Positions 55,666 to 58,845 of a stretch of 64,000 nt of DNA are shown here, piece after piece. The DNA lies in assembly GCA_965226375.1 (NCBI GenBank), contig CBDDCX010000008.1:960001-1024000 (forward strand). The letters run 5' to 3'. The translations under genes and the position numbers were made by a program. Source of the DNA: Longimicrobiales bacterium (GTDB lineage: Bacteria; Gemmatimonadota; Gemmatimonadetes; Longimicrobiales; Gaopeijiaceae). Position 1 is the stretch's first letter. Every line of letters starts with the position of its first letter. The notes under the pieces are model-generated. The model was not told the origin of the DNA. It searched no databases and saw only the letters and a program-made list of their open reading frames with translations.

Positions 55666-56669
55666 CACCAAGCGAGGCTAGTGATGAAGCGCCGCACCTT
55701 CGTTCGTTCCGCGATCGCCGCAGCAGCAGCCACGGCCATCCCTACCAAGTCCTTGTGGGGCACCGGATTTCGACTTGCCCAACAGACGCCACCCGATGTG
55801 GACGCGATCTCCCTCGATGGGGGGGAGCTCACCCTGAGGGGGAGGGCGGTGGCCGAACTTCGCGCCCGTATGGCAGGACGGCTTCTCCTGGCCGATCAGG
55901 ACGGCTACGACGAGGCACGGCGTGTTCTCAATCCGTCCTTCGACAAACATCCCGCCCTCATCGCTCAAGCCACTGGCACGGCGGATGTCCGCGCGGCGGT
56001 CGAGTTTGCTCACGAGCACAGTCTATTGCTGGCGGTGAAGTGTGGAGGACACAGTGCCTCGGGTAAGTCGACGTGCGATGGCGGGCTGTTGCTCGACCTG
56101 TCTCCGTTCAGGAACGTCAATGTGGATCCGGTGGCGCAGGAGGCGTGGGTGACTGGAGGCAGCCTACTGGCACAGCTCGACCATGAAGCCATGGCCTATG
56201 ACCTGGTCACTCCGATGGGGACCGTATCTCATACCGGCATTGGAGGCCTCGTCACCGGGGGTGGATTCGGCCGCCTCGCCCGCCGGTTCGGTCTTGCGAT
56301 CGACAACCTCAAGGGTGTCCACGTCGTGACCGCCGACGGTGCTTTCCGTCGGGCCAACGCAGAGGAAAATCCGGATCTGTTCTGGGGCGTACGGGGAGGC
56401 AGCGGCAACTTCGGGGTGGTCACCTCATTCCAATTCCGCCTCCACTCGATGCAGCGGCAAATCGTTCTATGAAAGAGAGTGTCAAGGCCGGGCTCCGCCC
56501 CGGCTGTCTGCGAAGCCGTGTTGGGCTTGGCACTCAGCCTCCGCTTGGCTGGAATGACCGGATCGTCAGGGAGTGGTGTGCTGGATGAGTCAGTCTTCGT
56601 GTCGGCCACGATGATCCTCACTTGGATGGTCGATCCGTCTGGACTTGATTGAGTGGACCTAGGTCGTAC

Positions 56670-56815
56670 GACGCGAACCATGGTTCTATCTGAGACTCAG
56701 CCTCGGGGCCGGCCTGACACTTCTTCGGGTTCTGCGGAAGGGCCTGGAGTTAGGATCGTGCCTCGGCATGACTGCGAGCCGGGCGTACGGATTTGCTTGA
56801 GACTGCCTCCCGCAC
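56670..56815 (-). ncRNA. Candidate bridge/seekRNA (target-binding and donor-binding loops)
   Basis: Manual fold; loop segments match target flanks and element ends (see findings). Confidence 0.7.
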
Positions 56816-56867
56816 CGTCGTCCAGGGATTCGACGTTCCAAGGGATCGAAGGTCATGCGCTGCACCC

Positions 56868-57959
56868 CTACACCCTAGGACGATGAACCCCCCTCAATGT
56901 TTGGGGTCGACTCAGCTGCGTCGGATCAAAGACTTCTCCGGTTTTGAGTAGACGAAGGGTGAGCGCTGCGAGCTTGCGAGCCAGCGTCACACGGGCGAGC
57001 TCCTCGCGCATCCCGCGCTCGAGCATTCGGTTATAGAAGTCCAGGAATGGGCCCGGACGTCCAATGGCTACGTTGGCGGCGCCCTTGAAGACATTCTTGA
57101 GGACTCGATTGTGGTTGCGGTTCAACCCTCGAGTGAGCGGAGGGCGCCGCCGCCGGCGAGGACGCCCATCGAACAACTCGTAGTCGGAGCTCGAGCGCGT
57201 GACCACGGCGAGTCCGGCATAGGCCCACAGGTTGCGCTTCGTGCGGAAGCGCCACGGCGTACCCATGGTTGCTAGCAACAGTGCGATACGCACGGGCCCA
57301 AAGTAGGGGATCGTCTCGAGCACCCCGAAGGCCGGATCACGCTTCGCCTCGGCGACCATGGCCGCCTTGGTCTTCTTGCGCTGAGCCCGAAGCACATCGA
57401 GCTGAGCGTACAGGGTCTCGGCTCGTAGACGAGCTCCTCCCTCCGGTAGCTGCGCGAGCCAGGCGCCGCGCTGCTTCGGCTGGTAGACTCCGCCGCCCGT
57501 GGTTCGGATCGCCCGCGCACGGAAGAGTGCCTTGAGCCGCAGCATCACGCGCGTGCCGTCTTCGACGAGGTTGCGATAGGCTCGAGTCAGCTCCTTGAGA
57601 TCAGATCGGCCGTGTGCGCCGTGGTATACCGCGCGCAGCCCGCCACACCGCAACCGCTCCGACAGCTCGTCGGCATCGACCTGGTCCCCCTTGTTGCCCG
57701 AACGCTTTTCGCCTCTGCGATCGCATACGATCACCCGATCCACACGAGGACTCAGTAGGTCGTAGAGCCACTGCGCCTGGGTTCCCTCTTCGAACACTAC
57801 GTGCACCGACCCGCGCATCGCGCTGAAGAACTCCGTGATCGATGCGTCCCCCGTCTCGATCACGCTGCGCGCGATCACTCGTCCCCCTTGGCCCCGAACC
57901 GTCGCCACCGTCATTGCCTGGTGCACGTCGAGTCCCACATACTTGGTGTTCCGCTTCAT
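56868..57959 (-). CDS. IS110 DEDD recombinase/transposase
   Basis: YVGLDVH, VFEEG, KGDQVDA, YAGLAVVTRSSS, LARKLA. Confidence 0.95.
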   Translation of the reverse strand: MKRNTKYVGLDVHQAMTVATVRGQGGRVIARSVIETGDASITEFFSAMRGSVHVVFEEGTQAQWLYDLLSPRVDRVIVCDRRGEKRSGNKGDQVDADELSERLRCGGLRAVYHGAHGRSDLKELTRAYRNLVEDGTRVMLRLKALFRARAIRTTGGGVYQPKQRGAWLAQLPEGGARLRAETLYAQLDVLRAQRKKTKAAMVAEAKRDPAFGVLETIPYFGPVRIALLLATMGTPWRFRTKRNLWAYAGLAVVTRSSSDYELFDGRPRRRRRPPLTRGLNRNHNRVLKNVFKGAANVAIGRPGPFLDFYNRMLERGMREELARVTLARKLAALTLRLLKTGEVFDPTQLSRPQTLRGVHRPRV

Positions 57960-58845
57960 GAGAGCCGCCCTCTGCTGTGGTCCATGGTCGTTTCGCAACT
58001 CCACGGTACCCACAGGGGGCGTGCTTTCAAGTTGTGTTGGGGGAAACATCTTCTTTCCCATCGAGCGGGCGGGTGACGTCCTGAGCTTGTATGGGGAGTA
58101 CGGGGTACAAGCCCCCGATGAGTTGCAGTTGGACTTCGTGATGGTCCAGCCTCCCGGAGACGCACCGGGCGTGGTGGGATTCGGCGTGTGTTATTCGGGT
58201 CCGGAAGGAGATGCGGAACGCGCGCTCGCTCCCGTCTACGGGTTGGGAACACCCATCGTCGACACGATGCAAGCGATGGACTACGTCGCACTCCAGAAGT
58301 CGGGAGACATCGACGACCCGAGAGCGCGTGCATCCTATCTGAAGAGCGGGTTCTTCTCGGAGATCCCACCGGGGCTGATCGCAGCCATCGTGGACGGCAT
58401 GGAGGGCCATCCGTCTCGAGCTACCCTGGTGATTGTCCAGCAGAGCGGGGGGGCGATCGGCCGTGTTTCGAATACGGCCACCGCGTTCGCCCAGCGAGCT
58501 GCCATCGGAAACCTGCTGCTCGCGGTCGACTGGGCCCACGACGATGATGGCAGTGAGCACACGGCTTGGATCAAGCAGTTCTGGACGACCCTGGAGCCGT
58601 TCACCCATGGGTTTTACGTGAACGACGGCGACCCCGAGGCGTACGAGAGTGCCGAATTCGTCCACGCCAGCTACCGGGAGAATTACCCCCGGTTAGTGGA
58701 GATCAAGAACAGGTACGACCCCGACAACCTATTCAGGATGAATGCCAACGTTGCCCCGACGGTTTGAATTCTGAGTGGCGCCGTCCCTGTGCGCTCCGGC
58801 GCTACCGGCGCATTCTTACGTTGATCGGTTGGGTCGGGCTGCGAA

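Follow-up and report, generated by a model that had tools for sequence, protein, structure and literature searches.

A divergent IS110-family insertion sequence in a Longimicrobiales genome carries a putative two-loop guide RNA that covaries with its insertion flanks

What selected the site at which a 1572-bp element entered an oxidoreductase gene of a Longimicrobiales bacterium, and can the choice still be read from the element itself? The element occupies positions 56467-58038 (minus strand) of a 64,000-nucleotide stretch of contig CBDDCX010000008.1, referred to below as the window. An earlier note on this DNA, made from the letters alone, had described it as an IS110/IS1111 element whose guide RNA matches its own insertion site. 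The computational analysis presented here draws on the anatomy of the element, structural covariation, guide-flank covariation, catalytic residues, copy identity and the empty site, and it leads us to regard the element as very probably an autonomous IS110-family insertion sequence with an IS1111-type layout, carrying the gene for a two-loop guide RNA. The mechanism has been known since 2024, and members that target integron attC sites are also known, so that the window element is an addition in a distant branch. What goes beyond the routine consists of hypotheses, namely one-base shifts in the register between guide and target, a guide indel that separates an orphan copy from the active ones, and a conserved tail beyond the guide RNA.

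The element, its ends and the interrupted gene

The features of the locus are as follows (window coordinates, strand, description).

56467..58038, minus: whole element, 1572 bp including one GTT copy; identical ends in five full copies and in five single ends of four partial copies
55681..56466 and 58039-58767, plus: N-terminal and C-terminal parts of the interrupted FAD-linked oxidoreductase gene, recognized by Pfam domains and orthologues
56464..56465, no strand: core copy at the right-end junction, GT on the plus strand and AC in element orientation; second copy at 58036-58037
57960..58038, minus: left end, with core, 6-nt spacer ACAACT, sub-terminal repeat TGAAAG (58029-58024), 5' leader, and AGAGGG 9 nt before the ATG
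56868..57959, minus: transposase/recombinase gene, 363 aa plus stop; PF01548 and PF02371
56733..56814, minus: putative target-binding loop, 82 nt; outer stem 56814-56806 with 56741-56733, second helix GUCU/AGGC, inner hairpin
56787..56796, minus: putative right target guide GCAAAUCC (56796-56789) and core-pairing GU (56788-87), complement of top strand AC-GGATTTGC
56749..56755, minus: putative left target guide UCCUA and core AC, sense of top strand ...TCCTA-AC, pairing with the bottom strand
56675..56732, minus: putative donor-binding loop; stem GAACC/GGUUC, 5' strand GAAGAAGU-GU (56726-56717), helix AGGC/GUCU, 3' strand AUAGA-AC (56689-56683)
56467..56674, minus: right-end tail of about 208 nt; hairpin H2 56539-56502, GC hairpin at about 56504-56486, TTGACA 56485-56480, CTTTCA 56475-56470, end ..CATAGA

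The transposase gene lies on the minus strand. On the plus strand the right-end junction (56457-56475) reads GCAAATC GTT/CTATGAAAG and the left-end junction (58028-58047) reads CAAGTTGT GTT/GGGGGAAAC, with GTT at both (56464-56466 and 58036-58038). Excision of 56467-58038 in silico yields ...CAG CGG CAA ATC GTT/GGG GGA AAC..., which is in frame. That this removal restores an oxidoreductase had been proposed before, and it is confirmed by the domains in the two halves (FAD_binding_4, E 1.4e-26, and BBE, E 2.7e-12) and by uninterrupted orthologues in three related genomes (72% identity), which read MQRQVLGG.I where the restored window protein reads MQRQIVGGNI and are collinear across the joint. 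Because the orthologues are collinear, the target was exactly GCAAATC-GTT-GGGG, as had been deduced, with no base lost or gained after the insertion. For the host, the window copy inactivates the oxidoreductase gene.

The locus shows the traits of an IS110 element, with no terminal inverted repeats, a short core at both junctions and a scarless empty site. The non-coding DNA amounts to 401 nt on the 3' side of the transposase gene and 79 nt on the 5' side, and a longer 3' region holding the guide RNA is a criterion for the IS1111 group. The sub-terminal repeat TGAAAG/CTTTCA is 6 bp long, at distances of 6 and 4 nt from the core, and its two halves change together in relatives of the element (TGAGAG/CTCTCA); lengths of 7-17 bp are quoted for the sub-terminal inverted repeats of the IS1111 group (PMC11187229 / PMC11208160). 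The edges of the element may be drawn 1 nt further to the left with identical sequence, since donor and target have an identical base beside the 2-nt core.

A two-loop fold held by covariation

Relatives of the element were collected by scanning one genome per species, which gave 76 loci (from the best 80 of 93 confirmed stretches; individual loci carry L numbers below). Folding of the minus strand of 56665-56825 gave a 9-bp outer stem (56814-56806 with 56741-56733) around an internal loop and an inner hairpin, followed by a second part in which GAACC/GGUUC (56732-56728 with 56679-56675) encloses a second internal loop and hairpin. This is the two-loop fold that the earlier note had drawn, with the segments GCAAAUC (56796-56790), UCCUAAC (56755-56749), AAGUGU (56722-17) and AUAGAAC (56689-83) at the places it gave, and it is held by covariation in 26 sequences.

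The consensus fold from RNAalifold on the alignment of these 26 sequences comprises 28 pairs, with 96.5% of the alignment cells paired as compared to 32-48% when the partners are slid by 1-3 columns. Changes on both sides occur at 15 of the 28 pairs, and none of 500 shuffles reached the observed value in any of five measures. Helices 1, 2 and 4 of the target loop are 93-99% paired and contain 11 compensatory pairs, while helix 5, in the donor loop, is 99% paired with 3 compensatory pairs. Conserved wobbles appear on the transposase-sense strand, with U.G in 23 of 26 sequences at columns 46-107 and G.U in 25 of 26 at columns 137-162. On the opposite strand these wobbles would be A-C mismatches, which argues that the structure is that of a sense-strand RNA or, formally, of single-stranded DNA of that sense. 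An open frame on the minus strand (56229-56681, 150 aa) begins at an AUG within the conserved GAACCAUGGUUC of the donor stem and runs out into the flank; it is broken by indels in relatives and is probably not coding.

Target guides and the core

In what follows the elements are read with the transposase from left to right, and GTT is read as AAC. The 5' strand of the first loop is hypervariable between conserved flanks, and in the relatives 8 nt of it together with a following GU are the complement of the core plus the first 8 nt of the right flank. Examples are CGCGAGAC-GU with AC-GTCTCGCG (L012 and L041), GCAGAGAC-GU with AC-GTCTCTGC (L014), GCAUAUCC-GU with AC-GGATATGC (L029), CUGGGCCG-GU with AC-CGGCCCAa (L034), and CUCCGAAC with CTCCGAAC. 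The 3' strand of the same loop repeats the last bases of the left flank and the core, as in CGCCUAAC with CGCCTAAC, GGCCGAC with GGCCGAC, and AGUUCAC with AGTTCAC.

The covariation of loop segments with insertion flanks that the earlier note had asked for was found on both sides. Right guides matched their own right flanks at a mean of 8.04 of 10 positions in 23 elements, versus 4.89 in 454 non-cognate pairs, and left guides matched their left flanks at 6.9 of 8 positions in 16 elements, versus 4.7 in 110 non-cognate pairs; none of 20000 permutations equalled either value, although the tested elements are related and share guides and flanks in part, so that the permutation counts overstate their independence. 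Despite this kinship, the pattern of guide and flank is plain by eye. The observation is thus confirmed by covariation and does not depend on a single 7-nt match. The right guide of the window element was correctly located before, and its extent has to be revised from 7 nt to 8 nt plus the core-pairing GU.

A 3-nt core had been considered possible, and the relatives argue for a shorter one. Most of the 26 relatives have GU, the pairing partner of AC, after the right guide (GA takes its place in L049, L051, L052 and L063). The left junction and left guide read TAC, GAC, CAC and CAC in L035, L038, L040 and L045, where right end and donor guide are AAC throughout. In these four, donor and target have nothing but AC in common, which makes the core a dinucleotide, AC (plus strand GT), and the apparent 3-nt repeat in the window arises because the preceding base happens to be A in both donor and target. 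One relative copy (L023:2984-3000) has AGC at its right junction and AAC at its left, and a core mismatch there may have been resolved differently at each.

The donor loop

In all 23 elements that could be read, the 3' strand of the second loop, AUAGA-AC, is identical to the right end with its core; both the strand and the right end are invariant, so this is a matter of consistency rather than covariation. The 5' strand GAAGAAGU-GU, with its register set by the target loop, pairs with the left end AC-ACAACTTG at the core and at 5 of the 8 other positions, and has A-A mismatches at two neighbouring positions. Where the left end of a relative is GCAUGUUG, GCAUAUUG or GCACAUUG, its donor 5' strand is GAAGAAGC-GU or GAACGAGC-GU; the core-adjacent pair changes from U-A to C-G, and the fourth pair becomes G-C in L045. 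Changes on both sides are thus seen at two positions, giving what appears to be partial support for covariation of the donor 5' strand with the left end, and the strand lacks GU in L034. The segment AAGUGU, which had been taken as an imperfect match to AAGTTGT, does belong to the donor strand, of which it is only the 3' part. An interruption is known from the right donor guide of IS621 (A157-U158/C162-G165; PMC11208158).

The recombinase

The transposase matches PF01548 (E 5.5e-08; 33.2 bits, cut-off 29) and PF02371 (E 2.9e-10; 40.8 bits, cut-off 21.3), and a profile of 18 relatives matches the IS621 transposase (8wt6) at E 7.9e-12 and the ISCro4 transposase at E 4.3e-10. Residues D12, E58 (E58/E59), D93 and D96 are invariant in the 18 relatives and align with D11, E60, D102 and D105 of IS621, and when the segment GLAVVTRSS is aligned to GLTPRRYES of IS621, a conserved Ser/Thr falls on S241. 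The catalytic roles of these five IS621 residues are documented (PMC11208158). Relative to the IS1111 motif GL-P----S(T)G, the version found here, GLAVVTRSS(S/A), keeps GL and Ser and lacks the P and the G. The lineage is a divergent one within the IS110 family.

The start that gives 363 aa is the ATG common to all relatives. Upstream of it the frame is open (window 57960-58030, minus strand) and encodes a semi-conserved peptide, ..ESTPP.GTVEL..HGPQQ.AAL-MKR, with an open frame also in L026, L034, L037, L038, L040 and L045; this could reflect conservation of the left end as nucleotide sequence or an N-terminal extension from an alternative start.

The window site and the register of the right guide

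The guides of the window copy call for the cognate site TCCTA-AC-GGATTTGC. Among the 86041 AAC sites of the host genome (assembled in 8 contigs, 4.23 Mb, G+C 63.5%), none matches the right guide at 8 of 8 positions and 21 match at 7 of 8. With no perfect site in the genome, its five identical copies lie at near-cognate sites. The six readable right flanks in the host genome were scored in register (shift 0) and at four shifts, with the following result.

L001: 6/8 in register, none better shifted
L002 (window): 4/8 in register, 7/8 at shift -1
L003: 6/8 in register, none better shifted
L004: 2/8 in register, 7/8 at shift +1
L005: 2/8 in register, 5/8 at shift +2
L007: 3/8 in register, 5/8 at shift +2

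The guide loops are invariant across the host copies and the right flanks differ (6, 4, 6, 2, 2 and 3 of 8 in register). Invariant loops with unrelated targets were what the earlier note had named as evidence against its proposal, and within this genome the comparison does look bad; the proposal is rescued only by the relatives and by the shifted matches. Just 73 of the 86041 AAC sites (8.5e-4) reach 7/8 at any of the four shifts, and against this background the two shifted 7/8 sites among four non-attC junctions are not due to chance, while the background for 5/8 at +2 is 8.7%. The match between GCAAAUC and the identical target flank, which had been read as a guide matching its own insertion site, is present as a 7-nt match (GATTTGC) and is 1 nt outside the register of the relatives.

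The left side is more regular. Each of the eight left flanks in the host genome agrees with the left guide near the core, position -2 being C in 8 of 8 when G.U is accepted at -1 and -4, and their pattern is ..CC(T/C)AAC. The left half-site of the window copy, CCCCA-AC, is good, with two G.U pairs to the left guide. The crossover itself was not displaced in the window copy, because the left junction is full (CCCCC-A-AC-ACAACT) and has one base too many for a displaced crossover; a deletion after insertion is likewise ruled out as the cause of the shift by the collinearity of the orthologues with the restored oxidoreductase.

These data lead us to propose, tentatively, that the spacing between the right guide duplex and the core is not fixed. 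Insertion would have occurred 1 nt early in the window, in register at the two attC-like sites (see below), 1 nt late at L004 and possibly 2 nt late elsewhere; the complex would tolerate a single bulged RNA or DNA nucleotide by the crossover, and the short left guide would set the cut. In the simplest reading, one of two C residues in the RNA would be bulged in the window complex and one DNA base would be bulged at L004. If so, the natural off-targets of bridge recombinases would include bulged sites, as with Cas9, and guide loops could drift by 1-nt indels without losing all of their targets. A narrow full-text literature search found no paper on bulged off-target sites of IS110 bridge RNAs, and publication elsewhere is possible.

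A competing account, which we consider possible but doubtful, is that the shifted matches on the right do not reflect bulged pairing at all, insertion having been directed by the left half-site and core without the right guide, with the ATTTGC-like motifs either incidental or members of local sequence families. Such half-match recombination has been reported for off-target insertion of IS621 (10.64898/2026.08.31.748434), and it would agree with left flanks that all fit ..C(C/T)(T/C/A)-AAC, with right flanks that reach only 2-6 of 8 in register, and with the eight sites outside the element that carry AC-GGATTTGC next to a poor left half, every one of which is empty (for example G000:C2:53165, C6:432672 and C8:48928; four of these perfect right half-sites lie in one repeat, CTGATCAGCTTCACGGATTTGCCGCGGGCCAGACC). 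It leaves unexplained two independent sites at 7/8, one at -1 and one at +1, given how few AAC sites in the genome reach that score, and the remaining two non-attC sites reach 5/8 at +2.

attC-type targets and an older guide

An integron attC site is recognized as an imperfect palindrome bounded by RYYYAAC and GTTRRRY. The relative OZ252253 has 15 copies of the element in one 4.7-Mb genome (compared as L014-L025, L031 and L078), and 10 of its 14 distinct right junctions adjoin a repeat, GTCTCTGCGATTCTGCTGCGCGG...GCAGCAATCGCTTGTTAG(G/A)C. The left flanks end in (G)TCT-AAC and are otherwise unique, and the repeat begins immediately past an R''-like GTCTAAC. The junction repeat and left flank together form an imperfect palindrome with the RYYYAAC/GTTRRRY bounds, which identifies them as attC-type sites. 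Several of the OZ252253 copies occur in clusters, with neighbours only 637 bp apart (L015:2991-3635, L078) at the same end of successive attC sites, and the locus appears to be a heavily colonised cassette array in which the spacing is like that of cassettes.

Two of the six right junctions in the genome under study (L001 and L003) also lie in such a context, ..CT-AAC-CAATTTGCGATCCTGCTGCG...ATCGC..GTTAGGG, and the window copy lies inside a gene and not at an attC site. An integron integrase is encoded on contig C4 of this genome (308.6 bits, cut-off 265). A tyrosine recombinase 4 kb from L003 could not be called an integron integrase, being below the cut-off of both models (205.5 bits versus 265 for integron integrases, and 218.8 versus 220 for the XerA type). 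A loose scan for attC-like patterns returned 20 mostly spurious hits, among which it recovered just the two occupied sites, and no counts were based on it.

In an RNA library of another sample, one contig carries the right end of this element, with 1 difference in 213 nt, connected to a flank whose letters end ...GAATCGCAAATC immediately ahead of the aligned C-GTT. Most likely this contig reads AAC-GGATTTGC-GATTCTG, an in-register 8/8 site within an attC-type repeat, a reading that assumes that 30 of 34 loose letters adjoin the joint; its 6-nt spacing to GAATCGC matches that of L030. From these sequences, the natural target of this guide family would seem to be the integron attC-type site.

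The host genome also holds what appears to be a record of an older guide. An orphan remnant (G000:C8:1779380-1779516, L010) is a transposase-less RNA gene of 91% identity with the right guide GCAAUCC, one A shorter, and the left guide GCCUAAC; about 1.57 kb of unrelated DNA separates it from a tail fragment at 1781084-1781190 (L011). Its GCAAUCC-GU matches, in register, unoccupied host repeats of the form ..TAAC-GGATTGC-GATTCTG... A comparison of orphan GCAAUCC with active GCAAAUCC indicates that guides change by single-base indels as well as by substitutions, and the difference between the two would be one such step in the drift that unfixed spacing would allow. The currently active guide appears to have lost perfect complementarity to local sites.

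The same facts could be turned into an argument that the host copies are stranded, with a guide that gained a 1-nt insertion (GCAAUCC to GCAAAUCC) and copies that then spread by homologous recombination or duplication rather than by guided insertion. The in-register match of the orphan guide to empty repeats and the lack of a perfect site for the present one would fit, but five full copies have unrelated flanks, exact ends and a core copy on each side, a pattern that neither duplication nor recombination produces; where it can be examined, the empty site is clean, and the likely cognate site is occupied in another sample. We consider this scenario improbable and keep to guided insertion at near-cognate sites.

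A second type of repeat (ATCTTATAAGGCGAAGGGCTGACC...) was seen past the ..GCGATTCTG of the attC-like site in L012:1506-1660 and L030:2991-3145, and in the host genome at C7 ~102,300 and C8 ~912,100. About 130 nt further on is an open frame beginning MFVAGIDAH that looks like an IS110-type recombinase with a 5' non-coding region. Two families of RNA-guided elements may therefore share attC-like sites.

The right-end tail, promoter and transcripts

About 200 nt beyond the two loops had been set aside earlier as unexplained extra structure. Extra structure does exist, and it is not idiosyncratic, because its length is conserved across the family and it has conserved features. The donor loop is separated from the right end by 209-255 nt in 23 relatives, 19 of which have 216-237 nt, even where BLAST alignment fails. 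In order, the tail contains a short hairpin right after the donor stem, a GACTG box, H2, the GC hairpin and CTTGAC(A). The first hairpin and the GC hairpin before TTGACA were judged by eye, as the alignment register there is inconsistent. H2 has the form GGGGCUGAUUGC-(A-rich loop)-GCAAUCAGC (window 56539-56502). RNAalifold gave no usable consensus for the alignment of 23 tails (2 pairs only), and H2 was tested by hand instead: it is 87.8% paired versus 9-42% when slid, with 3 pairs changed at both partners and 19 wobble cells, each of them on the sense strand. Its paired fraction and its covariation score were not reached in any of 500 shuffles, although 311 of 500 reached its count of both-side changes. 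CTTGAC is invariant, the GC hairpin adjoins it, and 16 nt, including the sub-terminal repeat, separate it from the end of the core.

Given its conserved length and covarying hairpin, the tail may represent a third functional module of the element, as RNA or as DNA. The last 25 nt would comprise a -35 box and an end-recognition sequence, and the hairpins upstream would lie in the 3' portion of the primary transcript, where they would signal processing or termination or form a protein-binding module; these assignments are the least supported part of our account. A simple scan of the linear element for sigma-70-like promoters and terminators found none of either. ISEc11, an IS1111 member, is known to have a junction promoter and showed no other (PMC11187229). 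The -10-like hexamer in relatives of the window element would be CATATT or GATATT (4/6).

RNA-library runs X15-X18 yielded short contigs of low depth (2-5x for the near-identical ones) over the tail, both loops and the 3' end of the transposase gene, which may derive from contaminating DNA, give no information on strand or ends, and are uninformative for the parts left uncovered. That the 3' structure is no guide RNA, recognition being by protein and sub-terminal repeats and the matches coming, for example, from pairing of single-stranded DNA during transposition, is very improbable: the library contigs are inconclusive, the sub-terminal repeats exist and covary, and Watson-Crick covariation would look the same for RNA and single-stranded DNA, but the frequent G.U and U.G pairs fall on one strand only, at conserved helix positions, the geometry is that of experimentally shown seekRNAs and bridge RNAs (PMC11187229, PMC11208158), and the recombinase is homologous to that of IS621.

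A proposed cycle and points to be weighed

The cycle that we infer, with its transcription, RNA processing, protein binding, circle formation, junction promoter and bulge, would run as follows. The DEDD/Ser recombinase would cut the element out as a circle closed at the dinucleotide core AC. Its junction would bring TTGACA, from the right end, to 17 nt upstream of a weak -10-like hexamer from the left end, and the resulting junction promoter would drive the recombinase gene and the 3' non-coding region on one transcript. A bridge/seek RNA of about 145-160 nt (56814-56675, minus strand) would be cut from this transcript or end within it. The first loop would read the target, UCCUA-AC pairing with the bottom strand to the left of and across the core and GCAAAUCC-GU with the top strand across the core and to its right. 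The second loop would read the circle junction with the same geometry, AUAGA-AC pairing with the right end and GAAGAAGU-GU, with its internal mismatch, with the left end. Strand exchange at AC would then insert the element, and at the window copy a good left half-site would have been combined with a right half-site displaced by one base, needing one bulged RNA nucleotide.

Several observations pull the other way. To the imperfect donor 5' strand and its variant in L034, the in-genome disparity of the right flanks, the empty perfect right half-sites, the kinship of the elements in the permutation tests and the ambiguous library contigs must be added the following. Single-sequence folding gives a weak z-score of -1.0 to -1.2, unremarkable values being expected for G+C-rich DNA. 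An Rfam scan of 56000-58500 at E up to 1 returned no family. The NCBIfam model NF033542 scores 118 bits over 342 of 343 profile positions, under its cut-off of 140, which points to a divergent IS110 member rather than to a different fold, and phmmer with the single transposase protein found no chain in the PDB, where only the profile succeeded. Finally, in the joined circle the hexamer 17 nt from TTGACA would be CAACTT, which has 2 of 6 matches to TATAAT (A2 and T6 kept). The proposal that this is an intact RNA-guided recombinase is nonetheless supported by the Pfam domains, the DEDD/Ser residues and the covarying loop segments, and the element is likely to be both intact and recently active; this support is at the level of sequence.

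Relation to known systems

In IS1111 elements the RNA gene is 3' of tnp, and the seekRNA has a 5' guide complementary to the top strand and a 3' guide complementary to the bottom strand that overlap at the insertion point, with the reverse guide order in IS110-type elements (PMC11187229). The window element shares with IS1111 the RNA gene downstream of tnp, the guide order and the overlap, along with sub-terminal inverted repeats, a right-end -35-like box and the lack of any internal promoter seen, and its 82-nt target loop equals the 82-nt peak size of seekRNAs in the same source (PMC11187229). It differs in its distant protein (363 aa versus the 330-350 aa quoted there), in the motif GLAVVTRSS(S/A), in the 6-bp length of the sub-terminal repeat and in the location of the window copy outside attC. 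ISKpn4, ISPst6 and ISPa25 are IS1111 members that target attC (PMC11187229). Insertion in one set position and orientation, at one end of the integron attC site, is the criterion for this attC group. By description the close relatives of our element resemble them in lying at one end of attC (the R'' side, ..YCTAAC/).

With IS621 (PMC11208160, PMC11208158) the element has in common a DEDD RuvC-like domain followed by a Tnp domain with catalytic Ser, two internal loops that each have two guide strands pairing with a dinucleotide core, and the interruption of one donor guide (the right guide is split in IS621, and here there is a 2-nt internal mismatch in the 5' strand). The RNA is 5' of the gene in IS621, whereas it is 3' here, and the core is CT there and AC here. 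The long guide is on the right (8+2) and the short one on the left (~5+2) in our element, the reverse of IS621 (9 and 4), and a 200-nt tail extends past the RNA here.

The known principle of RNA-guided insertion is unchanged by this element. Bridge/seek-RNA recombinases are under development as programmable tools for DNA insertion, and their natural diversity defines how much the scaffold tolerates. The element adds a lineage remote from those already characterised (identity of about 30% at most among the 25 best plasmid-borne matches listed, and a score under the NCBI model cut-off), with fully readable guides, an AC core and a long-right/short-left geometry. Its relatives provide a natural series in which changes in guide and target can be read pair by pair, and the host genome is a natural experiment on a guide without a perfect site, with hints of a tolerance for 1-nt register shifts that bear on off-target prediction. 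The family can reshape cassette arrays, since it settles in integron attC sites and reaches up to 15 copies in a single relative.

Copies, distribution and relatives

The host genome contains five full copies (four at 100% and one at 99% identity), four partial copies, three of them reaching a contig end or stopping within 5 bases of it and one holding both ends of the element, and two short fragments of the non-coding region. All copies have identical ends and GTT at each junction, with flanks that are unrelated except at the two attC-like sites. The empty site of L004 is a 443-aa open frame with no Pfam match in either half, which does not prove a clean junction. A metagenome scan with a 24-mer for further copies with the exact window guide found none, and the sole match to a 20-mer (L101, a contig of 1189 nt) was taken to be due to chance, since the sequence does not continue as a bridge RNA.

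In a protein search the element was present in 5 of 41 related genomes (this one included) and in neither of two other genomes of the same genus, the patchy distribution that a mobile element shows. A tblastn search of 72,556 plasmid records matched 96, all below 60% identity; the ten commonest host genera of the matching records are soil or environmental taxa. The relatives are mainly from metagenome-assembled genomes of Gemmatimonadota/Longimicrobiales, with a close group at 87-93% protein identity and distant ones (37-57%) in Acidobacteriota, Myxococcota and others. In the distant relatives DNA similarity persists most in the transposase gene and in a segment some 40-200 nt past its stop, and ends near window position 56670. 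One relative (L027:2414-2790) has a 165-nt piece of the transposase gene (element positions 826-990) repeated three to four times in tandem.

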